The notes beneath the pieces were generated by a model, which saw nothing but the letters and a program-made list of their open reading frames with translations, ran no database searches and was not told the DNA's origin. Made by a program: the position numbers and the translations under genes. Source: Candidatus Spongiisociaceae bacterium (lineage in GTDB: Bacteria; Actinomycetota; Acidimicrobiia; Spongiisociales; Spongiisociaceae). From it: DNA of 64,000 nucleotides. Within the stretch, counting starts at the first letter, position 1. Each line of letters starts with the position of its first letter. The stretch spans positions 1-64,000 of the forward strand of contig OZ241841.1 of the NCBI GenBank assembly GCA_965202665.1, given 5' to 3'. Shown here in pieces: positions 26,449-42,949 of this stretch.

Positions 26449-26568
<120 letters not shown>

Positions 26569-26631
26569 GCATCTTGAAATGTGGGAGGCTCTTTGAGCGC
26601 TCCATAGCGAGCATGAAAGCCTGAATTCATA

Positions 26632-29699
<3,068 letters not shown>

Positions 29700-30096
29700 A
29701 TAGTAAAGAATTCAAGACAAATTCATGCTCGCTATGCAGTTCTCAAAGAGCCGGGCCCCCCGGTCGTCGCCGACCCGGAAGCCCTTGAAGCAGTCTCCGC
29801 ATCCGGTTCCGTCCGTTGCCGGGCGGTCCGGGGGCGACTCCCTCACTACTAAACAGCGTGTCCGACCCGTCCGCCGCCCGCCGGGAGCGGGCCGCTCCCC
29901 GAAGATTCGGGGGGCCGCGCGCCCGGATGGCGCGGTGCGGGTCGAGTAACCGAAAGATCAACTAAGAGCGGACCGGCGGCAACCCGTCGGTTGCGCGGTC
30001 CTCCCGGAGGCGTCGCTTCCTCCGGGCTTTGGGCGATGACCGGGCCGGTTTCCCCCGGATGGGGTTCCCCGGTTCCGGCGGCCCTCTGCGCTCCTT

Positions 30097-31626
<1,530 letters not shown>

Positions 31627-31842
31627 TCAGTCTGTTCATCCCGCGCCCGGCCGCAGGCCCGGCGGGGGACTGAATCCTGTCTTGGTCTTCTCGGCTTCGT
31701 CCGCCCGCAGGGGGCGGCCGGGCCGGAAAGGTTTGATCCGGCCTGCCGGTGGGAAAACACCGGCAAGCGGGAGTACATCCCAAACCGCCCTGCCCTCCCC
31801 TGGCGGGGACGGGGGCGGCGGAATGACTTTCATTCGGCTTTT

Positions 31843-31981: not shown

Positions 31982-32123
31982 ATCAATCCCCGACCCCGCC
32001 CCGGAGAAGCCCGTTTCGGCCCCTGACCAGGCATTTTAGCATCACCCAGGTGCCGGGCCGGGAGGCAGCGGCCGCCCGCCCCTGCGTTGGATGGGTGGCT
32101 TCTCTTCGCCGAAAACGACCCTC

Positions 32124-32151
32124 TTGAAAACGTCGCGGGAATTCGTATCTT
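32124..32151 (+). promoter_or_regulatory. Putative promoter of the darT-ARH operon (leaderless)
   Basis: TTGAAA-N16-TATCTT, 7 nt before ATG 32159; no SD seen. Confidence 0.5.
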
Positions 32152-32158
32152 GTACCGT

Positions 32159-32797
32159 ATGAGCAACTCATGCCCCGCCCATTCCATCGCGGACAGCCTG
32201 CGCAGGCGGCGGATCCTCTACGTCTGCCATATGACCCCCTGCCATCGCCTGCCCTCCATATTCGCCTCCGGGGGGCTGCTCTCGCTGGCCGCCCGCCGGG
32301 TGAGCGGCATCGCCGAACCGGAACAGCCGCACGACTGGGGCGGGGAAGGCAAACGGGAGGCCTTGGCCGGATACGTAGTGTGCGGTTTCGAAACCCCCAA
32401 GTGGATGTGCCGCAAACACCCCGAAGAGCTGGCCCTCGTCCTCCTAGACGCCCACGCGGTGTGCTGCGGGGAAAGCGTCCTCTTCTGCCCCGGCAACTCC
32501 GCCGACGACCGCTACCCCGCCTCCGATATCGCAAAGATGACCGGCGCAGAACATTTTGACGACTGCTTCAAAAATCGCCATGACCGAGAATCAAAGTTCG
32601 GCGAGATATTGGTTCCGGGCCAGGTTCCGGTCGACCTTTTCCGCGGCCTGCTCTTCTGCGACCGGGAGGCGATGGACTACTGGATTCCCAAAATAGAAGG
32701 CCTGTTTCCGCACCCGCCGCTTACTGCGGACGTCCGGTACCTTTGGGGATACGCGTTTCCGGTAGACTGGAGCCCCAGCGAAAGGATCCGCCCATGA
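32159..32797 (+). CDS. darT: DarT-family (DUF4433) ssDNA ADP-ribosyltransferase toxin, DarT1-like
   Basis: VCHMT..RLPSIFASGGLLS (HxT..LxSIL..GLLS), YVVCGF, LFCPGNSA, and catalytic-Glu motif GEILV..VP. Confidence 0.75.
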   Translation: MSNSCPAHSIADSLRRRRILYVCHMTPCHRLPSIFASGGLLSLAARRVSGIAEPEQPHDWGGEGKREALAGYVVCGFETPKWMCRKHPEELALVLLDAHAVCCGESVLFCPGNSADDRYPASDIAKMTGAEHFDDCFKNRHDRESKFGEILVPGQVPVDLFRGLLFCDREAMDYWIPKIEGLFPHPPLTADVRYLWGYAFPVDWSPSERIRP

Positions 32798-34209
32798 CCT
32801 CACAATACGATCTTTCCTCCTTGCCCGTCGACGGTCCGGACAGTTACGTGTTGCGTATGGACCGCGTGCTGATCGCGGCGGCGGCGGGGGACGCTTTGGG
32901 ATGGATGACCGAATCCATCCGCGACGTTGAACAGTTGCGGAACCGGTTCAACACCGACTGGCTGACCTACTACCGAGACTGGAGCAAACCGGAAGGAGGC
33001 GCCCGGAGCTACATTGACCGAATCCGCCGGGGCGACTACTCCGATGACACGCAGCTGACTTTGGCCACCGCCCGGTCGCTACGGGGAGACGGCTCGCTGG
33101 ACGCCGGCTATTTCGCCCATTGGGAACTGCCCGCCTGGCTGGACTATGCACGGGGAGCGGGCTCGGCCACCCTGGCCGCCGCCCGGAACTTCCAACGTAA
33201 TTCGGTTCGCTGGAACCAAAACTTCTACACCTACACTCGCCGTCATCAGACTTTTGACTACCGGGACGCGGGGGGCAACGGTGCGGCGATGCGGGTTGCG
33301 CCCATCGCCTTGGCCAACCTGGCCGACCCGGATCTGATAACCGAGGGGGTGTGGCGCTCGGCGATCACCACCCACGGCCATCCGCGGGCGGTGTTGGGGG
33401 CTTTGCTCTACGCACACGCCTTGCAACTCTGCTTCATCGGCCAAAAGTCGCTTTCCAAATCGGATCTGGTCGAAGAGCTGGCCGGACGGTTGGAGCGAAC
33501 CGACCCGCCCCCGACTCCGGAGTTCGATGAATGGGTGGCCGTATGGAACCGGGGCGCAGACACATCTTTCGCCAACCTGATGGAAAAAGTCGCCCAGGAG
33601 ACGGCAGCCGACCTCATTCACTTGGCGGAGCTTTCCTCGGACGCAACGACCACCCGCCGTTTCATGGAAGCGCTGGGATGCTTCCGACCGGAGACGAAAG
33701 GCTCGGGAACGGGCACCGTTCTAGCCGCGTTGGCCATAGCGTTGCAGGAGCGGGACGACGTCCACCAGGCCATCCCTTGGACGATCAATCAGCTGGGTTC
33801 CGACACCGACACCATCGGTTCCTTCGTAGGAGGGTTGTGCGGAGCCATCTACGGAACGGATTTCGCCCAATCCGTCTGGTTCTACGAACTGCAGGATCAC
33901 GACGGGTTGTCAATGGCCGCCAACCGGATGGGGCGCATCGTCCGCCGGGAGGAGGCAGCGGAGCCTTGTCCCGCTTCAAACCAAACTCATTGGAAAGAAA
34001 ACCTCCCCAAAGCGCCGGACAGCATCCGTTCCGGTGTTCTGTCCGAAGGAGACTGGGTGTTTCATCACCTTTTCGGCCATGGCAAGATCGACGAAATTGA
34101 AACCCAACCTTTCAGAAACGACTCCGACGGCCAAGTTCGCTTAGTGCGCGCCGACTTCAACAACGGCCAAAGTTGCAAGTTCCGCAGTTTACAATCTCTT
34201 CAGATTTAA
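32794..34209 (+). CDS. ADP-ribosylglycohydrolase (ARH/DraG family) copy 1 with C-terminal Tudor/SH3-like domain
   Basis: GDALG, YSDDTQL, GNGAAMRVAP, THGHP, GSDTDTIG; ATGA overlap with the darT stop. Confidence 0.9.
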   Translation: MTSQYDLSSLPVDGPDSYVLRMDRVLIAAAAGDALGWMTESIRDVEQLRNRFNTDWLTYYRDWSKPEGGARSYIDRIRRGDYSDDTQLTLATARSLRGDGSLDAGYFAHWELPAWLDYARGAGSATLAAARNFQRNSVRWNQNFYTYTRRHQTFDYRDAGGNGAAMRVAPIALANLADPDLITEGVWRSAITTHGHPRAVLGALLYAHALQLCFIGQKSLSKSDLVEELAGRLERTDPPPTPEFDEWVAVWNRGADTSFANLMEKVAQETAADLIHLAELSSDATTTRRFMEALGCFRPETKGSGTGTVLAALAIALQERDDVHQAIPWTINQLGSDTDTIGSFVGGLCGAIYGTDFAQSVWFYELQDHDGLSMAANRMGRIVRREEAAEPCPASNQTHWKENLPKAPDSIRSGVLSEGDWVFHHLFGHGKIDEIETQPFRNDSDGQVRLVRADFNNGQSCKFRSLQSLQI

Positions 34210-34289
34210 TGGAGGAGTAGGGGGTTAGGACCGCGGCACTGGACCGGAGTGGCGGCCCGCCCCGTCGCCGAGGCTGGCACCGCGTCGAA

Positions 34290-34409
34290 TGGATGATGTC
34301 TTTTTTGCCGAAAACAGCCCTCGGCCAGCCGATCACGGTCACAACCCGGGGACTGTGGGATTTCGGATTTCCGCTAAACTGGCTTCCCAATGAAAGGGCA
34401 CGGCTATGA
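34290..34409 (+). pseudogene. 3' remnant of a second darT-like gene
   Basis: MMSFLPKTALGQPITVTTRGLWDFGFPLNWLPNERARL* aligns with the DarT tail MDYWIPKIEGLFPHPPLTADVRYLWGYAFPVDWSPSERIRP*; same ATGA overlap with the next ARH. Confidence 0.7.
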
Positions 34410-35833
34410 CCTCGCAATTTGATATCTCCTCGTTGCCCGACGGGGGTCCGGACGGCTTTTACTATCGTTTGGACTGCGTACTGATGGCGGCCGCGGCGGG
34501 TGATGCGCTGGGGTGGATGACCGAATCGGTCCGCGACGTTGAACAGTTGCGTAACCGGTTCGGCACCGACTGGCTGACCTACTACAGGGACTGGAGCAAG
34601 CCGGAGGGAGGCCGACGCGGATACATGGACCGCATCCGCCGGGGCGACTATTCGGACGATACGCAACTGACGTTGGCCACCGCACGGTCGTTGCGCGGGG
34701 ACGGATCGCTGGACGCCGAACATTTCGCCTACCGGGAGTTGCCCGCTTGGTTGGACTACGCGAGAGGAGCCGGGGCGGCCACGCGAGCCGCCGCCCGGGC
34801 CTTTCGGAAACAGTCGGTACGCTGGAACAAAAACTTCTACACCTATACCCGCCGTCACCAAACCTGCGATTACCGGGATGCGGGGGGCAATGGGGTAGCG
34901 ATGCGGGTTGCGCCCATCGCTTTGGCCAACTTGGCCGACCCGGATCTGATAACCGAGGGGGTGTGGCGTTCTGCCATCACCACCCACGGCCACCCGCGGG
35001 CGGTAGCGGGGGCACTGCTCTACGCCCACGCCCTGCGCCTGTGTTTCATGCGCCGCCGTTCTTTGACCAGATCCTATTTGGCCGGGAACCTGACGGAGCT
35101 GTTGGAGGGCGCCGCCCCTCCCGCCGTCCCGGAGTTCGATGAATGGCTGGCCATATGGAACCGGCGAGCCGACACGACCTTCGGCAACCTGCTGGAAAAA
35201 GTAGCGGGAGAAGCGGCCGCCGACCTCGCCCACTTAGCGGAACTGCCCGCTGATGACGAGCGGTCCACCCGCCGTTACATGGAGGTTCTGGGATGTTTCC
35301 GCCCCGAAACGAAAGGTTCGGGAACCGGCACCGTCCTCGCCGCCCTCGCCATAGCAACCGAAGAAAGGGACGACATCCAGCAGGCACTCCCTTGGACCAT
35401 CAACCAACTGGGTTCCGACACCGACACCATCGGCTCCTTCGTAGGAGGACTATGCGGAGCCGTCCATGGGGTGGACTTTGCGCAAAGCATTTGGTTCTAC
35501 GAACTGCAGGACCATGATGGGATATCGCATGCGTCGCGATGCATAGGACATATAGCCAACCGCCTCCATCCATTCCAAACCGTTTCCGTTCCCCCGCGCA
35601 ACGGAGCCAAAGGCCAACCCCCCTTGTTGACGGAGCGCATAAAAGCGGAGGACCTTGCCGAAGGCCAATGGGTTTTTCACTCCATCTTCCGCGAAGGAAA
35701 AATAGAAAAAATAGAAACCCGCCCCCTGCGCAACCAACCGGACCGCCAAGTCCGACTAGTCCGCGTGTGCTTCGAAAACGGCCAAAGTTGCAAGTTCCGC
35801 AGTTTCGTTCCATCCGGCATTAGCTCGCGCTGA
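34406..35833 (+). CDS. ADP-ribosylglycohydrolase copy 2 with C-terminal Tudor/SH3-like domain
   Basis: Same catalytic motifs; long identical peptide stretches with copy 1. Confidence 0.9.
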   Translation: MTSQFDISSLPDGGPDGFYYRLDCVLMAAAAGDALGWMTESVRDVEQLRNRFGTDWLTYYRDWSKPEGGRRGYMDRIRRGDYSDDTQLTLATARSLRGDGSLDAEHFAYRELPAWLDYARGAGAATRAAARAFRKQSVRWNKNFYTYTRRHQTCDYRDAGGNGVAMRVAPIALANLADPDLITEGVWRSAITTHGHPRAVAGALLYAHALRLCFMRRRSLTRSYLAGNLTELLEGAAPPAVPEFDEWLAIWNRRADTTFGNLLEKVAGEAAADLAHLAELPADDERSTRRYMEVLGCFRPETKGSGTGTVLAALAIATEERDDIQQALPWTINQLGSDTDTIGSFVGGLCGAVHGVDFAQSIWFYELQDHDGISHASRCIGHIANRLHPFQTVSVPPRNGAKGQPPLLTERIKAEDLAEGQWVFHSIFREGKIEKIETRPLRNQPDRQVRLVRVCFENGQSCKFRSFVPSGISSR

Positions 35834-37206
35834 TGACATCGGAGCGGATTTCCGAGCACTTGGAAAGCGCGCTGTTCGCCAACGCCTGCGGGGACGCGCT
35901 GGGGTGGATTACGGAAATGAATCAAGACCCCTCCAGGTTGTGGCGGATCATTGGCTCCAGCTGGCTAACCGACTTTGCGGACTGGTCGAAATCCGCTGGC
36001 GCGGGCGGCGGGATCAGGTACGTGGACATGGTGCGCGCAGGTGAATATTCCGACGACACGCAGTTGACTTTGGCCATCTTCCGTTCTTTGCGGGGCGACG
36101 GCTCCTTCGATGGCGACCATTTCACCGGCCGGGAGCTGGCGAAGTATCTGGATTACGCACGCGGGGCCGGGGCGGCCACGGTAGGGGCTTGCCTGGCCTG
36201 CCGGAGACGGCCGACTAGGTGGAATGACAACTTTTTCACCTACGGATACCGCGGCCGGCGGGATTACCGGAGCGGAGGCGGCAACGGGGCGGCGATGAGA
36301 GTGTCGCCGGTCGCTTTGGCGAACTTGCGCAACCCGGAGCAACTGGAGGACGGCGTGTGGCGGTCGTCGGTGGCGACGCACGGCCATCCCACCGCCGTCT
36401 TGGGTTCCCTGCTCTTCGCCCACGCCCTGCGCCTGTGCCTGGAAAGACGAGAGCCCGTGCCGCGCTCCGAACTGGTCGGAGAGTTGATTCCGGTTATCGC
36501 CGGGGCCGCTCCTCCGCCGACCCCGGAGTTTGAACATTGGGTGGACGTTTGGAACCGGTCTTACGATCTGGTCTGGGACGAACTCCCTTTTGAGGAACTG
36601 TTGGATAAGCGAGCCGGTGAAGTGGTCGGTCAACTGGAACAGCTGGCGGAGATTCCTTCTGAACCGGAGGCCACCCGCGCCTTTATGGAGGACGTGGGCT
36701 GTTTCAGCGGGGGAACCTTCGGCTCCGGAACCGGCACCACTTTGGCGGCCCTGGCTATCTACCTGCAAGACCGGAACGATCCCCGGTCGGCCATCCCATG
36801 GGCAGTCAACCAGCTGGGTTCCGACACGGACAGCATCGCCGGGTTCGTGGGAGGAATGTGCGGAGCGTCTTACGGCCGGGAGGCCATCCCGTCTCACTGG
36901 TTCCACCAGGTGCAGGACTCCCAGTACCTGGCCTATGCGGCCCGTTGCCTGGAGGGGGTAATCAACGGCCGTACCAACGCCGGCGACAATTTCCTTCCCG
37001 AACCAACGGATGAGGACGCCCTCCTGCCGCAACTGCCCGAATGTTTGGAATCACACGATCTCGGCGCGGGAGACCGGGTTTTCCACCCCATTTTGGGAAC
37101 CGGGGAAATAGAAGATGTAGAAACCCAATACGACAATCGCGTCCGTCTTACCAGAGTAACCTTCGATCAAGGCCAAAGCTGCAAATTCAAATACGTGCTT
37201 CCCTAA
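35833..37206 (+). CDS. ADP-ribosylglycohydrolase copy 3 (more divergent) with C-terminal Tudor/SH3-like domain
   Basis: GDALG, YSDDTQL, GNGAAMRVSP, GSDTDSIAG; TGATG overlap with copy 2. Confidence 0.9.
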   Translation: MTSERISEHLESALFANACGDALGWITEMNQDPSRLWRIIGSSWLTDFADWSKSAGAGGGIRYVDMVRAGEYSDDTQLTLAIFRSLRGDGSFDGDHFTGRELAKYLDYARGAGAATVGACLACRRRPTRWNDNFFTYGYRGRRDYRSGGGNGAAMRVSPVALANLRNPEQLEDGVWRSSVATHGHPTAVLGSLLFAHALRLCLERREPVPRSELVGELIPVIAGAAPPPTPEFEHWVDVWNRSYDLVWDELPFEELLDKRAGEVVGQLEQLAEIPSEPEATRAFMEDVGCFSGGTFGSGTGTTLAALAIYLQDRNDPRSAIPWAVNQLGSDTDSIAGFVGGMCGASYGREAIPSHWFHQVQDSQYLAYAARCLEGVINGRTNAGDNFLPEPTDEDALLPQLPECLESHDLGAGDRVFHPILGTGEIEDVETQYDNRVRLTRVTFDQGQSCKFKYVLP

Positions 37207-37210
37207 AGGT

Positions 37211-40051
37211 TCAGGCTCCAGCATCCAGGCGGGCAATCAGTCGGGGAACGTCCTGCTCAAATACCAGTCCGAAGTTTTCCCATTTGCCCCAGCGACCGTC
37301 CTTGTTGACCGCTTTTAGCCACAAATTCAGATACTGCTGCTTCGCGCTCGCCTCCGCCTCGGTCGCTCCTTTCGTCTCCACAATCAAATTCGTTTCGTCT
37401 TCCCTTAGGCAAGACCTTTCTCCCGCCGGACGCAGGCGAACTACGAAATCCGGATAGTAAGGCACTGACCGCCCTTCGAACACATAATCCACCTTGAAAC
37501 CGATGTGCTCGCGGTCATTTTTAACCCAACCCGCAACGTTTCTATGGCCGGAGAAAATCCTTCCCGCATGCTTTTCCAAACCGGAGTCGTATACGCCGAC
37601 ATTCAGGTGAGTGCGTCCCACGTTGCCGTCTATCAATTCAGGACGGCGACGGGTCACCCATGGACGCATTTCCCTGGTAGATAAAACAGGGCGGTGGGGG
37701 TTTTCGTAGACCCCTTCCATCATATGATATTCTTCCTGAAATAGATGGGGGCGAAGGTGTCGCACTATCTGTCCCAGCCCGGCCTTGATAACCATCTTTT
37801 CAGAAACGCCGTTGCCCACTATTTGCAACATCTCAGGGTTTTTCACAAACTCCAGCATCACCATGGCCAGCTGGCCCCACATGGCGGCACCGCCGTCCGG
37901 CCATCCCTCCCGGCTCCGGTAAAACACCCGGGCCGCATCGAAGGCCAAAGTTTGCAACCGTATCTCCTCCAGTTTGTCGCGTAGCACCGTCTCATCGGGT
38001 TCGGCGGTAACGTACTCCAATGTTTTAGCCATTCCCGCTTCGGTAAAAACCTCATCCGCCCGCAACAGAAGGGGCTCTACATCTTCCCAGTCTATTTTGA
38101 GTGTCTGACGAGGCATGGTTTCCACTCGCAACAGAGCGGGCCAGGCGACCTCGAACTTGCGGTTTTTCTCCACGGTGTATACGTCCACCGGTGGATGCGT
38201 AATCCTCTCACGGGCGGTGGACGTCTCCTTTTCGGCTAGCAACAAGGTGAATGGAACTCCGAAAATGCGCACATATTCGGGTTCAAAGGATCCGTCTGCG
38301 TTCAACTCGTAGGAAGTGCGGCGCAAACCGCGTCCGATTACCTGCTCGCATAAGAGTTGGCTTGTGAAAGCCCTCAACCCCATAATGTGCGTGACCGTTT
38401 TGGCATCCCACCCTTCGGAAATCATATTCACGGCGATGACATGCCTGATTTGCCCGCCGGGGGAACCTTCCACCCCCACGGTTTTGGCAATTTCCCGTAG
38501 CCGCTCCGCCTGTTCCCCCGCTTTACCGGCAACCCGCTCCCCGGCCTCTAATTTTTTCACCGCCTTGATGGTCGTACTGTCATAGTGGAGCGTGGTTTCC
38601 TTATCGATCAATTCGTCATTAACCAGCTTCAAATCAACAAATAGCCTTTTCACACGCTCCGCCGTCTCCGTTCTGTTGCAGATGCTGACCATAACCGGCG
38701 GAACCGATGAACTCTGCTCTCCCCATTCCTTGAGCGTGTCCGACCATGATCCGGCCAGCAGTTGGTATGCCGACACCACGAGCGGTGGCAAGGGCTCTCC
38801 TATCATATTTTTCCCGCCGCGTAAGTTTTCTTTGACGCCTTCTTCTTCATATAGATGAAACAGTTTGCTGCGCCTCTCCTCCCCTCCTGCTTCCAATCCA
38901 GGGAGCGGTTCGTCGTCCGGCGTGGTCAGGTTATCCTCGGCGGCGATACGCGGCGTCTTTACCAGCCCTGATTCGATTGCGTCGGATAAGCCGAAGTCGG
39001 ACACCACCCATGGGAACAGCCGCTCCTCCCGTTGCGTTTTCTTCCCAGGAGGAGGAAACGGGGTGGCGGTGAAATCGTAGCAACGAACAAGTTTTCCCAT
39101 CTTGTGGAGCCTGTCCAAACCCTGAATCCACACCGTGGCCGTTTCTCGATCCTCTTTTTTGTACTCGGTGAGTTTGGCATTCGACGGCACCCGCCAGGCG
39201 TGATGAGCCTCGTCGTTGAACACCAGAAACGGCTCCGTCAAATCCAGCATGCGGTTGAAAACCCGAGTTGCGAAGGCGCGATCCGTTTCCGGATCCAGTT
39301 TTACGACGCCCCGGCCCGACTCGGTTTGCGGGGCCAGTTTATGCCAGTTGGTTATCAGCAACTTCACCCGATTGAGTTTCTGCCGGAAACCGCCGCCGGG
39401 CGGCACCAGGGCAAAAAGGTCGTAATAATTGTCAGTATGGGAGGGTAGCAAAACCTGTAACCGATCCCGTACCGTAAGATTGGGCGCCAGAATCAGAAAA
39501 TTCTTCACCCAGCCGCGCTCTCTACGTCGCGCTTTATCGGCCCCGGCATAGTTCAAAGATTGCCAGGCAATCAACATTGCCATCAGCACCGTTTTGCCGG
39601 TTCCGGTGGCCATCTTGGCGCACCATCTTTCCAGCGAACCCCCATCTCCGGTAATCCGTTGCGCAACACTCCGGCCGGTGGCGTCTTCTGTGAGAAAAAT
39701 GATAGTCTCGGCCGCTTCCAGTTGCGCGTAAAACAACTTGTGTTCCCGCTCAGGATTTTCCCAATGTTCCAACAGCCGTCTAGTAATAGAGGTAAGACCG
39801 GGACGGCCTCGGCTTCGCCAGCGGATAAGGGCCTCCCTAATGTCATTAACCAACTGCAGAGGCTCTTCTATAAAATCGCCACTTCGAGGTTCGCGCAACT
39901 GGTAGGTGGCGTATCGCCGATGATGCACCAGTTCGAACTCTTTGGTCTCCCGGTTGAGTTTCCAATGCTTATCCGGACAGCTGAACGGCCTGTTGATAAT
40001 CAAATCTCCATCCACCCCCAACACCGTTCTGTCCATGGTATCAGTACCCAT
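37211..40051 (-). CDS. res: Type III restriction endonuclease (Res subunit, SF2 helicase plus PD-(D/E)xK nuclease)
   Basis: KMATGTGKT, NDEAHH, TATP, EGWD, EQVIGRGLRR, YYPDF...VETKG. Confidence 0.88.
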   Translation of the reverse strand: MGTDTMDRTVLGVDGDLIINRPFSCPDKHWKLNRETKEFELVHHRRYATYQLREPRSGDFIEEPLQLVNDIREALIRWRSRGRPGLTSITRRLLEHWENPEREHKLFYAQLEAAETIIFLTEDATGRSVAQRITGDGGSLERWCAKMATGTGKTVLMAMLIAWQSLNYAGADKARRRERGWVKNFLILAPNLTVRDRLQVLLPSHTDNYYDLFALVPPGGGFRQKLNRVKLLITNWHKLAPQTESGRGVVKLDPETDRAFATRVFNRMLDLTEPFLVFNDEAHHAWRVPSNAKLTEYKKEDRETATVWIQGLDRLHKMGKLVRCYDFTATPFPPPGKKTQREERLFPWVVSDFGLSDAIESGLVKTPRIAAEDNLTTPDDEPLPGLEAGGEERRSKLFHLYEEEGVKENLRGGKNMIGEPLPPLVVSAYQLLAGSWSDTLKEWGEQSSSVPPVMVSICNRTETAERVKRLFVDLKLVNDELIDKETTLHYDSTTIKAVKKLEAGERVAGKAGEQAERLREIAKTVGVEGSPGGQIRHVIAVNMISEGWDAKTVTHIMGLRAFTSQLLCEQVIGRGLRRTSYELNADGSFEPEYVRIFGVPFTLLLAEKETSTARERITHPPVDVYTVEKNRKFEVAWPALLRVETMPRQTLKIDWEDVEPLLLRADEVFTEAGMAKTLEYVTAEPDETVLRDKLEEIRLQTLAFDAARVFYRSREGWPDGGAAMWGQLAMVMLEFVKNPEMLQIVGNGVSEKMVIKAGLGQIVRHLRPHLFQEEYHMMEGVYENPHRPVLSTREMRPWVTRRRPELIDGNVGRTHLNVGVYDSGLEKHAGRIFSGHRNVAGWVKNDREHIGFKVDYVFEGRSVPYYPDFVVRLRPAGERSCLREDETNLIVETKGATEAEASAKQQYLNLWLKAVNKDGRWGKWENFGLVFEQDVPRLIARLDAGA

Positions 40052-42603
40052 CACTCCTCCTGCCCCACTTGTTTGGACTCTGGCAGAGGTATAACCACCA
40101 TCGATTCCACCCCGCGCCGATCAACGATTTTAACCGCCACCCGCCGATACTGACCCGCCTCAAAGGGAAGGCTTATATCCCCGTGGTACCATTCCAGAAG
40201 ATCCTCATCTATCGTCGCGCCTAGTGTCTTAGCTAGACTTCCCCAACCGTCCTTAGGACTTTGTGCGTTCGGGAAAAATATCTGGGAGGGGAACAGACTC
40301 TTTCCGTCGTAGTTGGAATCCAAAGACCACAAGGCGACCTCTTCCGCTCCGCTTGGTATAACCTTATTTGATTGATGATCATAGTAATCGAAACCAATAA
40401 TCTTTACTTGCCAAATGTCTTCACCTGTCTCCTCAATGTCAATATCAGGCTGGCCTACCAACCAAAAGACATCATCGCCAGGTTGGGCACCCTTCAAATC
40501 TGTAACAAGCAAATCAGCGTCGATAACAGCACGAACTAGATCCACCCCAGGCCAACTTTTTCGGCCTAGCAACTCGGATGCCGCCGTATCGAACCCGAAG
40601 GCTGCGAACAGCACCATCTCCGGACGTGGAACAAGTGATTGGGCTTCTTCTATAGCCTGCTCCACCTGAAAGCCCGATAAAGGCGCATAGGGCGATCCAA
40701 ACACTACAACGCACACCTTTCCTTCTTCCAATACCCCGGTGGCATGTATCCATCGGCCGCCAGCGTGTTCTGCTAGTTCATCAAAACGGATTTTGCCGTT
40801 ACGGACGGTGCGCACCCCGGAACGACGCATCTGCTCCAACCAATCTCGCCAATCATCCATTCCTTCCACATCGGCCACTACCTCCCCCCGGCTAGATGGA
40901 CCATTTTCGGACAACGGCAACACCGGATGCGGAGCATACGGAGCTGGCAACGCCTCTATAGTAAACCACCCCGTAACCCGTCGCTTACGGGATATCCTTC
41001 GTGGACGGTCTACCAAGTCGATGGTTTCCGAATCTAAATCGTATGCTAAGGTTTTAGCAGTAACCTTCGGGCAGGTCTTATATATGAACCCACTAGCCGG
41101 GCTACTCCCATCCCTCAGCTCATAATATGGGTAAACCGCGGTAAGTAACCGCTTTCTTGCTATAGTTAAAGCCACTCTGCTAGTGTCAATGGTAATCCAA
41201 CGGCGACCCCACTGCTCGGCTACATACGCGGTGGTTCCGCTCCCGCAGGTCGGATCAAGCACCAAATCACCTGGATCCGATGTCATAAGCATGCAGCGCT
41301 CTACAGCAGTAGTTGCAGTTTGGACAACATATATCTTACCAAAAGGACGTATCTGTTTCCACCATATATTATGTAGCCTGCTTCCTGGCCAATCCTCCTC
41401 GTATTTCTTATACATTAGTTGTTTTGATTTACCCGCCTTGTCACACAGCCTATTTAACTCTGCAAGATTATCCATACCTTCTTTTGATACACTCCAATGC
41501 ATATTAGGGGGACAATAAAATATTTTACCGCTCCATTTATAAGGTTCGGAACGGTTCTGGACATAGCCTTGAGATGTTAATAGGCGACGTGCATAAAGAC
41601 GTATCTTTTCCATATTATCAGGATTCTCTCTTTCTCTTTTAGATAATTCGCGTGTTGTTCCATCCAACTCTTCACCCATAACCCAAGATCCGAAATGTTT
41701 AACAACGTCTTCTCTAGTTCGCTCACCAAACAATTGGCGAAATTTAATTTTGGTTTTATCTTTAGCATACCAAAGCAGATAGTTGGCGGCATTGGGCAAC
41801 AGAGTAGAAGATCCCCCTCCCGAAGTAGCATATGTAATCAGCTCCACTCGGTTCTCAGCTCCAAATATTTCATCCAACAGCAAGCCCATCCGCATAACAT
41901 TTTCCGAACCGATCTGGACAAAAACAGACCCGCTATCCTTTAGCAGTTCCCGACATAGTAGTAATCTATCTCGCATATAAGACAAGTATGAATGAATTTC
42001 TTTTCGCCAAGTGTCCCGGAACGCCTGTACCATCTCCGGTTCCCTTGACACTCCAGTCTTGGTCTCACCTACATTCAAATTGTCCGTTACAATCTGCCAA
42101 TTCCCTCCATATTTTATACCGTAAGGTGGGTCAAAGTAAATAGTTTGAACTTGTCCGCCCATGCCCTCTTTCTCTAATAGCGATGCCATTACCAGCAGGC
42201 TGTCGCCTGCGATCATCCGATTTCGCCAACCTACCTCGTGCTGGTAAAACTCTACCGATTCCCGACCAGTCAGTTGGCCAGGATCAAATAGCGGGGGTTG
42301 CCCCCCCCCCCCCCGCGCCTCTTCCGCCCTTATGGCATCCAGAACGCTCAACGGCTCTATGCGCTCATGGACATGCAAATCCCGGACGTCCACTTCCAAA
42401 ATTCGGTTCTCGCGCTTCCCGTGCCATGACAGGAAGGGGTCGGTGCGGTCATCGTGTTCCCAAACCCGCGTCTCCGCCTCGCCCGGATGATCTAGATGCG
42501 CTTCGGCCTGACCGGCCTGCGGGTTGTTTAGCCTGCTCGCCTTGGAGTGGTCATAGGAGGACGGTCGCCCCCCCCCCCCCGTAGATCTACGTTGATTGGA
42601 CAT
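40051..42603 (-). CDS. mod: Type III R-M DNA methyltransferase (Mod subunit)
   Basis: Catalytic DPPY, SAM-binding DPTCGSGTT, AT-rich TRD between them; TGATG coupling to res. Confidence 0.9.
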   Translation of the reverse strand: MSNQRRSTGGGGRPSSYDHSKASRLNNPQAGQAEAHLDHPGEAETRVWEHDDRTDPFLSWHGKRENRILEVDVRDLHVHERIEPLSVLDAIRAEEARGGGGQPPLFDPGQLTGRESVEFYQHEVGWRNRMIAGDSLLVMASLLEKEGMGGQVQTIYFDPPYGIKYGGNWQIVTDNLNVGETKTGVSREPEMVQAFRDTWRKEIHSYLSYMRDRLLLCRELLKDSGSVFVQIGSENVMRMGLLLDEIFGAENRVELITYATSGGGSSTLLPNAANYLLWYAKDKTKIKFRQLFGERTREDVVKHFGSWVMGEELDGTTRELSKRERENPDNMEKIRLYARRLLTSQGYVQNRSEPYKWSGKIFYCPPNMHWSVSKEGMDNLAELNRLCDKAGKSKQLMYKKYEEDWPGSRLHNIWWKQIRPFGKIYVVQTATTAVERCMLMTSDPGDLVLDPTCGSGTTAYVAEQWGRRWITIDTSRVALTIARKRLLTAVYPYYELRDGSSPASGFIYKTCPKVTAKTLAYDLDSETIDLVDRPRRISRKRRVTGWFTIEALPAPYAPHPVLPLSENGPSSRGEVVADVEGMDDWRDWLEQMRRSGVRTVRNGKIRFDELAEHAGGRWIHATGVLEEGKVCVVVFGSPYAPLSGFQVEQAIEEAQSLVPRPEMVLFAAFGFDTAASELLGRKSWPGVDLVRAVIDADLLVTDLKGAQPGDDVFWLVGQPDIDIEETGEDIWQVKIIGFDYYDHQSNKVIPSGAEEVALWSLDSNYDGKSLFPSQIFFPNAQSPKDGWGSLAKTLGATIDEDLLEWYHGDISLPFEAGQYRRVAVKIVDRRGVESMVVIPLPESKQVGQEE
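42301..42314 (-). repeat. G14 homopolymer in the mod coding strand
   Basis: C14 on the + strand. Confidence 0.9.
42568..42580 (-). repeat. G13 homopolymer near the mod 5' end
   Basis: C13 on the + strand. Confidence 0.9.
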
Positions 42604-42608
42604 CTCTG

Positions 42609-42935
42609 CTACTTACCCTGAGTAGTGTTGTAGTTTTCGTTATATAACAATACTTTGGTTACGTTTACTGATTTTGTTAGGAAGGGGTTGTCTAGCGTTT
42701 CGGTGTCTAGCAGGTCTATCTTGCGGTCGAACATTTTTTGCAGTTCTAGCAGAACGTCGATGTAGAACCATGTTGACTGGTAGGCTTCCGGTTTGAACTC
42801 CACTAGGAAATCGAGGTCGCTTTGGTCGGTGAAATCACCTGTCGCGGCGGAGCCGAACAGGTGGAGGCGGCGGATGTTGTGCTCCGCGCACAACCGCCGC
42901 AGGTCAGCCAAGCGGTCCTCTATCAAAGCTATCAC
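42609..42935 (-). CDS. Minimal nucleotidyltransferase (MNT, MntA-like)
   Basis: LHLFGSAATGDFTDQSDLDFLVEF (GS-x10-DxD), KIDLL; GTG after GGAG. Confidence 0.85.
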   Translation of the reverse strand: MIALIEDRLADLRRLCAEHNIRRLHLFGSAATGDFTDQSDLDFLVEFKPEAYQSTWFYIDVLLELQKMFDRKIDLLDTETLDNPFLTKSVNVTKVLLYNENYNTTQGK

Positions 42936-42949
42936 GGGTTGACCTTCTC

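Follow-up and report, generated by a model that had tools for sequence, protein, structure and literature searches.

The locus analysed here lies in a 64,000-nucleotide stretch of DNA (the window; positions 1 to 64,000 of contig OZ241841.1, assembly GCA_965202665.1) from a Candidatus Spongiisociaceae bacterium, and consists of a darT-like toxin gene followed by three genes of the ARH hydrolase family. We consider it probable that this locus is a helicase-free toxin–antitoxin pair in anti-phage defence, formed by a DarT and an ARH of the DarG3 lineage, with the extra ARH genes added by duplication. The DarT would mark single-stranded DNA, probably at guanine N2, and the ARH would erase the mark. 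Gene order, folds, motifs, the pairing of the two genes, the lack of a helicase and the gain and loss of copies are observed; all activities are inferred from relatives.

The darT-like gene (32159–32797, plus strand, 212 amino acids) is defined by open reading frame (ORF) calls, Pfam and a fold model. It shares an ATGA overlap at 32794–32797 with ARH1 (32794–34209, plus strand, 471 amino acids), which is likely the cognate antitoxin. ARH1 has a hydrolase core (residues ~15–385, with D33, E40, SDDT at 83–86 and DTDT at 337–340) and a C-terminal SH3/Tudor-like barrel (~412–468). ARH2 (34406–35833, plus strand, 475 amino acids) is 72% identical to ARH1, and ARH3 (35833–37206, plus strand, 457 amino acids), which overlaps ARH2 by TGATG, is 50% identical to ARH1. 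An initial annotation had described a DarT-like ORF with an HxT motif and a catalytic glutamate, the ATGA coupling to an ARH, the two further paralogs, and SDDT and DTD(T/S) motifs in all three ARHs. These features are all as described: the toxin carries HMT at 24–26 and E149 within GEILV. The island was also said to lack a macrodomain or NADAR gene, and neither family matched in the island ORFs scanned.

By its predicted structure the window toxin is DarT1-like, as the initial annotation had proposed. Against the Pfam DarT family (PF14487) it scores 28.9 bits, above the cut-off of 22.5. The proposed check of this ORF against DarT models and structures thus came out in favour of DarT for Pfam and for the fold, and against it for the NCBIfam DarT equivalog (19.2 bits, far under the 150-bit cut-off). 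A single-sequence PDB search using darT gave nothing useful. With a profile of 69 relatives, E. coli DarT1 (8baq) is the best PDB match (E 1e-21), and DarT2-type chains follow at 3e-8 to 0.012. The fold model (predicted local distance difference test, pLDDT, 94.9) reaches a Foldseek template modelling (TM) score of 0.72 to 8baq versus 0.52–0.56 to DarT2, and a Z-score of 19.0 to 8baq versus at most 14.6 to the other DarT structures compared. DarT1 modifies guanine N2, according to the literature on relatives. Because the toxin is DarT1-like by this measure, guanine is the base it likely marks, which we hold with moderate confidence.

Residues can be compared one by one by taking the DarT1 residues named in PMC11543638 and aligning the profile to 8baq, with an inferred numbering offset of one residue. 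H24, K65, E67, C75, M83, K86, H87, N113 and E149 of the window toxin then correspond to DarT1 H17, R52, D54, S63, M71, K74, Y75, N104 and E152, the mapping of M83, C75, K86 and H87 being based on the profile alignment and not on column counts across groups. From the DarT1 active-site set H17, M71, N104 and E152 are kept, and R52 and D54 are replaced by K65 and E67. All eight NADAR-linked DarT1 references conserve R, D, N and E at these columns, as do 52, 49, 52 and 52, respectively, of the 52 helicase-linked DarTs. As a whole, the window locus resembles DarTG1 in toxin fold (root-mean-square deviation 2.4 over 178 residues), in its two-gene operon and in the mapped H17, M71, K74, N104 and E152; it differs in having an ARH where DarTG1 has a NADAR, in K65/E67 for R52/D54, in a methionine for F18 and in an identity of 15–16%. 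DarTG2 (7omw, 7yk3, 7omu) belongs to the same ADP-ribosyltransferase family (Z 13.9–14.6) and shares the toxin–eraser operon logic, but the window island is without a macrodomain, and C75 and N113 stand where DarT2 has Tyr71 and His119.

The three ARHs match Pfam PF03747 with 154–161 bits. Across 107 aligned segments, the D33, E40 and S83-D84-D85-T86 columns are invariant in 106 (one gap) and the D337/D339 columns in 103 (four gaps). E40 is the Glu-flap glutamate that is crucial in known ARH3; like the metal ligands, it is invariant across the DarG3 family. The core structure is closest to archaeal MJ1187 (Z 37.6) and known ARH3 (37.2), followed by known ARH1 (35–36) and DraG (31–32), and the sequences stay well under the DraG and Tri1 equivalog cut-offs (~64 vs 337 and at most 47 vs 490 bits). 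The window ARHs hence share the fold (Z 31–37), the two-metal motifs and the Glu-flap glutamate with ARH3, ARH1, DraG and Tri1, but differ from them in a C-terminal barrel, in lacking the Asp97 motif of DraG and in their linkage to a DNA-targeting ART family. Their RG-x-G loop is as in known ARH3. It would be wrong to treat Asp97 as common to DraG and the known hydrolase ARH1: it is DraG-specific and absent from ARH1. The idea in the initial annotation that guanine N2 is chemically similar enough to arginine's guanidino group for an arginine-cleaving ARH/DraG enzyme is therefore weak, given the missing Asp97 motif, the proximity to ARH3 and MJ1187, and the failure of the ARHs assayed in PMC11833690 on guanosine ADP-ribose RNA.

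The C-terminal barrel, 65–75 amino acids long in each window ARH, is SH3/Tudor-like and has no clear family match. In a PDB sequence search its top three matches are UvrD C-terminal Tudor domains, all weak (E 0.014–0.12). Its score against the CarD model is under the cut-off, in structure it matches 7egs (Z 5.2) no better than EF-P/eIF5A barrels (5.1–5.6), and an ESM Atlas search with the ARH tail produced no usable match. One could argue that the barrel is a substitute for the missing helicase. We rejected this possibility because the barrel also occurs on helicase-linked Bacteroidota ARHs; it is weakly detectable in the E. coli type as well (hhalign E 0.002, probability 12%). Probably the barrel targets the hydrolase to DNA, to the transcription machinery or to the toxin. 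UvrD/PcrA Tudor domains in general bind RNA polymerase. Elsewhere in the source genome (G000:C1:648017–648730, minus strand) an ORF carries three repeats like the C-terminal Tudor of the adjoining upstream PcrA/UvrD gene (648765–651083).

The pairing of darT with an ARH is not particular to the window, which answers the question of recurrence raised by the initial annotation. For the ARH family we kept the best 80 of 396 matches, corresponding to 78 genome loci (L001 and L002 are from one contig), and darT is present at 73 of them; two of the five loci without darT (L022, L067) have less than 200 nt of upstream DNA. By comparison, darT occurs at none of 14 generic ARH loci with 1.5 kb flanks (one, L088, from the unpublished genome G039). 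Nine metagenome loci found from the toxin side all have an ARH directly downstream, and all five viral-contig loci carry the pair. Across the 87 genome and metagenome loci, darT and ARH are adjacent in 78, with an ATGA overlap in 39; darT lies 2–3 kb away in three, and there is no match above 25 bits in six. In L078 the two are fused. Hence, the ARH is a conserved operon partner of DarT across phyla. Neighbours of these loci are often defence genes (type III restriction-modification, BREX, GmrSD, Schlafen).

Several variations on the pair were seen in the survey. L041 is a fusion of leucine-rich repeats with DarT. In the Bacteroidota loci L011:3298–9377, L025:4266–9371 and L065:4384–9353 a DarT fusion of 450–500 amino acids is followed by an ARH 2–3 kb downstream, and the DNA in between holds two or three unannotated genes, one of ~520 amino acids and coiled-coil-like. 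The toxin relatives P0024, P0025 and P0040 (380–414 amino acids) have an N-terminal part that is NADAR-like by eye only. DarG3-family ARHs without darT in the available upstream DNA (L021, L026, L046) are possible orphan antitoxins. Among the five viral loci there is no orphan ARH, and annotated phages gave one weak generic match.

An ARH-type DarT antitoxin has already been published. DarHTG, also Liu-DS3 (PMC13069673, Nucleic Acids Res, April 2026), consists of a UvrD-like helicase without the 2B domain, a DarT and an ARH-like antitoxin, DarG3. The system is anti-phage, the active sites of helicase and DarT are both essential, DarG3 mutants could not be constructed, the family is Bacteroidota-rich, and DarHTG has a frequency of '<0.5%' in E. 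coli (PMC13069673). In our data the plasmid operon L099 (helicase–darT–ARH), present at 99.8–100% identity in 21 of the 5426 E. coli genomes, appears to be this system, judging from its architecture and that frequency rather than from the paper's accession. A DNA search of the E. coli genomes with L054 gave no match. ARH1 is 31% identical to the L099 ARH over 442 amino acids (E 2e-52), and 53 darT-linked ARH-family rows, the E. coli type included, form one clade against ten generic ARHs (Shimodaira–Hasegawa-like approximate likelihood-ratio test, SH-aLRT, 100). By sequence, then, the window ARHs belong to the published DarG3 lineage, with L099 as its presumed reference. Hence, the third class of DarT antitoxin that the initial annotation proposed as new was already described. 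Like DarHTG, the window has a DarT-family toxin gene and, directly behind it, the gene of an ARH-fold antitoxin that is similar to the ARHs of archaea and eukaryotes and lies in the same clade of a Bacteroidota-rich family; unlike DarHTG, the window and its clade are without DarH, the window genus has two to four ARH copies, and the toxins are dissimilar pairwise.

The absence of the helicase sets the window apart from most of the surveyed darT loci. A helicase lies directly upstream at 48 of the 73 darT loci and is missing at 20; five have insufficient upstream DNA. Upstream of the window darT there is no darH-type helicase, and the rRNA operon promoter region stands there instead. In the source genome the helicase profile finds matches only at distances above 500 kb, and these are weak, none scoring over 94 bits where E. 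coli-type DarH reaches 140–170. The window toxin clade, from Actinomycetota and Chloroflexota, is helicase-free at ten of ten loci (SH-aLRT 99, quick tree), and a helicase is seen at none of the nine close metagenome loci, three of which have 7 kb of upstream DNA. A second helicase-free group is cyanobacterial (L014, L028, L029, L033, L051, L056, L058, L103) and has long N-terminal DarT extensions, cold-shock repeats in L056, with several of these loci lying inside BREX loci. Our literature search found no publication on helicase-free DarG3 or on DarG3 biochemistry, although Table S5 or Fig. S10 of PMC13069673 may list helicase-free loci. A table of February 2026 names NADARs as the sole erasers of guanine ADP-ribose on DNA. 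The strings 'DarG3/DarT3' in bioRxiv 2023.12.14.571748 are citation superscripts and not an earlier naming. The literature consulted also includes PMC12879935, PMC9503650, PMC12945103, PMC11125620, PMC7050489, PMC11825919 and bioRxiv 2024.10.26.620412.

Multiple ARH copies are found only in the window genus, with three in the source genome (G000, 94% complete) and four in a second genome of the genus (G001), that is, in 2 of 29 family genomes. All other family-level matches and all other surveyed loci have a single copy. Triplication of the ARH is thus not a feature of the system as such. The extra copies likely come from tandem duplication. The 196-nt spacer between ARH1 and ARH2 contains the last ~25 codons of a darT gene (34329–34409, plus strand). 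This remnant scores 34.7 bits in tblastn, whereas 200 shuffled controls reach 20.4 at most; it is 48% identical to darT residues 187–211, and its DNA matches the 3' end of each of the two darT genes in G001 at 74–78% identity. It still overlaps the start of ARH2 by ATGA, which suggests that ARH2 came from a duplicated darT–ARH unit whose toxin was deleted. ARH2 is a duplicate of the darT-proximal type, and ARH3, which has a counterpart in G001, is an older paralog.

The ratio of nonsynonymous to synonymous substitutions (dN/dS) points to purifying selection on the ARH paralogs (0.24–0.40; 0.24 for ARH2, 0.36 for ARH3 against its G001 counterpart), and ARH1/2 and ARH3 are sister types within one local clade. 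The extra copies are therefore probably functional. They probably act as functioning spare erasers that stayed behind when darT–ARH units were duplicated and the toxin gene was lost. Misassembly does not explain the triple array: contigs of the runs X5, X6, X8 and X9 (two studies) also carry it, and those of X5, X6 and X9 bridge the junction between ARH1 and ARH2. Other strains differ. A contig of X18 skips 32141–32725, so that darT is gone except for its 3' end and the three ARHs are kept. A contig of X12 skips 34188–35826 and with it ARH2. An ARH2-type C-terminus occurs on 5 of 14 ARH1-cluster proteins. The toxin, too, is under purifying selection (dN/dS 0.41–0.42 against G001), and 3 of 14 darT proteins of the same cluster have lost a mapped catalytic residue. 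The losses of darT and of catalytic residues fit a costly toxin.

At the same site in G001 (G001:C1:1626400–1639300, L104–L105), between the rRNA promoter and tyrS, the order is darT–ARH–ARH–ARH, res, mod, a second darT–ARH, an ARH tail remnant and one or more GmrSD-like genes. The first of these ARHs is frameshifted near the C-terminus. In all, G001 has four ARHs of three types and two darT genes.

If these proteins act as their relatives do, DarT would ADP-ribosylate single-stranded DNA, probably at guanine N2, and during normal growth the two-metal ARH would keep the DNA free of ADP-ribose. Phage infection would shift the balance to DarT, which would then stall phage and host replication and so cause abortive infection. 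Several observations weigh against this scheme. In PMC11833690, neither the ARH3-like SCO5809 of Streptomyces nor the human ARHs could clear ADP-ribose from guanosine in RNA. The base-recognition column (N113) is tryptophan in 4 of the 10 window-clade toxins. Nor is N113 diagnostic for guanine, as asparagine also occurs there in macrodomain-linked DarTs of Thermosipho and of the source genome itself. R52 and D54 of DarT1 are K and E in the window toxin. Compared pairwise, the window and E. coli-type DarTs are not significantly similar (E 0.11), although a profile of the family picks up both; what holds for DarHTG may therefore not hold here. A single clade of ARH-linked DarTs is neither supported nor rejected (approximately unbiased test, p-AU 0.53). 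Since the helicase ATPase is essential in DarHTG, the helicase-free form may not defend. Finally, only three of the nine metagenome loci have 7 kb of upstream DNA, and in L005 a UvrD gene that looks unrelated lies 5 kb upstream.

Some of these points raise the possibility that the pair is as we describe it but the chemistry is different, the mark sitting on a protein, a phosphate end of DNA or a base other than guanine, through a linkage that ARH3-like enzymes can already cleave. We regard this as possible. ARH3-like enzymes clear ADP-ribose from phosphate ends of RNA and not from guanosine (PMC11833690), and known ARH3 is weakly active on thymidine ADP-ribose; the nearest structures of the window ARH core and the tryptophan in part of the clade fit as well. 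From DarTG1 to DarTG2, moreover, the eraser family changes together with the base. But the toxin fold is clearly nearer to DarT1, C75 occupies the Tyr71 position of DarT2 much as Ser63 does in DarT1, K86/H87 align with the guanine-contacting K74/Y75, and all 52 helicase-linked DarTs retain N, R and E. Far less can be said for a true antitoxin elsewhere, a macrodomain, with the ARHs as bystanders. The genome does have two macrodomain genes (732197–733795), but both are downstream of their own darT in a separate locus (L112, G000:C1:731463–733795), where darT (731463–732200, Pfam 117 bits) overlaps a 372-amino-acid macrodomain gene in ATGA fashion. Our own profile for NADAR-DarT1 (PF22397), which matched a control protein at 9e-90, had no match in the genome, 94% complete. 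With the ARH pairing conserved across phyla and fused in L078, and a DarHTG ARH mutant that could not be built (PMC13069673), the bystander explanation is highly improbable. L112 also has a stand-alone 154-amino-acid macrodomain gene downstream, so that here, too, a toxin comes with an extra antitoxin-like gene.

Suppose instead that the resident toxin is dispensable and that the ARH array is retained as a set of orphan antitoxins, an anti-addiction device against DarT modules brought in by phages or mobile elements. X18 keeps three ARHs without darT, the remnant before ARH2 records an earlier toxin loss, the paralog types are 50–72% identical and under purifying selection, G001 has more ARHs than toxins, and phage orphan antitoxins against DarT1 are known. 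Yet arrays occur in one genus only, catalytic erasers usually cross-protect, so that diversity gains little, and the three types fall within one local clade, as expected if they arose by duplication and were not gathered from elsewhere. We therefore find the orphan-array explanation doubtful, but it is compatible with the helicase-free defence pair. The most far-reaching reading is similarly unlikely: a helicase-independent DarT–DarG3 in which the ARH removes ADP-ribose from guanine N2 in DNA, a reaction that the literature consulted credits to NADARs alone, the barrel targets DNA or RNA polymerase, and a strain-variable array with diverged specificities gives orphan immunity against foreign DarT. 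It is also rather improbable that the locus is a decaying DarHTG remnant that no longer defends after losing its helicase and is maintained as an addiction module, with debris from duplication. The helicase is essential in E. coli DarHTG (PMC13069673), some strains have a deleted or altered darT, the first G001 ARH is frameshifted, and broken E. coli-type loci exist in G008 and G015. But the helicase-free state is old and widespread, with intact genes in Actinomycetota, Chloroflexota, Cyanobacteriota and soil and sediment metagenomes; darT is under purifying selection, and the neighbours are often defence genes.

The module sits between a minus-strand rRNA operon and a convergent type III-like restriction-modification pair (37211–42603, minus strand), an island neighbour outside the module that consists of res (37211–40054, BPTD_3080 family) and mod (40051–42603). 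A small nucleotidyltransferase and a tyrS-like gene follow. The rRNA operon (26450–31627, minus strand) is a complete 16S–23S–5S with a spacer without tRNA (ARAGORN: no tRNA in the window), and darT is divergent from its promoter. Run X9 carries a 925-nt insertion at 32041–32087. A promoter-like site, TTGAAA-16-TATCTT (32124–32151, plus strand), ends with its −10 element 7 nt upstream of the darT ATG. On its own this site is weak, because the pattern has two matches where 1.1 are expected by chance; both G001 darT genes have an identical TATCTT at identical spacing. The darT transcript is likely leaderless. Leaderless transcripts are frequent in Actinomycetota. The nucleotidyltransferase (42609–42944, minus strand; Pfam Polbeta, E 1e-12), between tyrS and mod, is a lone minimal one without a visible HEPN partner. 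A second type III-like res/mod pair, kin to that of the window, lies at G000:C1:2439499–2444604, its mod apparently split into two ORFs. Marine and sponge metagenomes are among the samples that hold the locus, and of the titled homologues the nearest come from metagenome-assembled genomes of Actinomycetota. The window-type darT is rare: in a phylum sample of 401 genomes it occurs in two, the source genome and one truncated contig.

The DarG3 family itself is known. What remains beyond it is a helicase-free variant with a DarT1-like toxin, the ARH barrel and the strain-variable antitoxin array; the barrel, the darT remnant and the separate darT–macrodomain–macrodomain locus go beyond the initial annotation. 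DarG3 has been named, yet its target base and a hydrolase assay are missing from the main text of PMC13069673, and the window form is well suited to this question. In its minimal two-gene form the system asks whether an ARH erases guanine ADP-ribose from DNA or the toxin writes a new mark. The helicase-free form bears on the core or accessory status of the helicase in DarG3 defence, and the natural arrays bear on whether additional antitoxin copies broaden protection.

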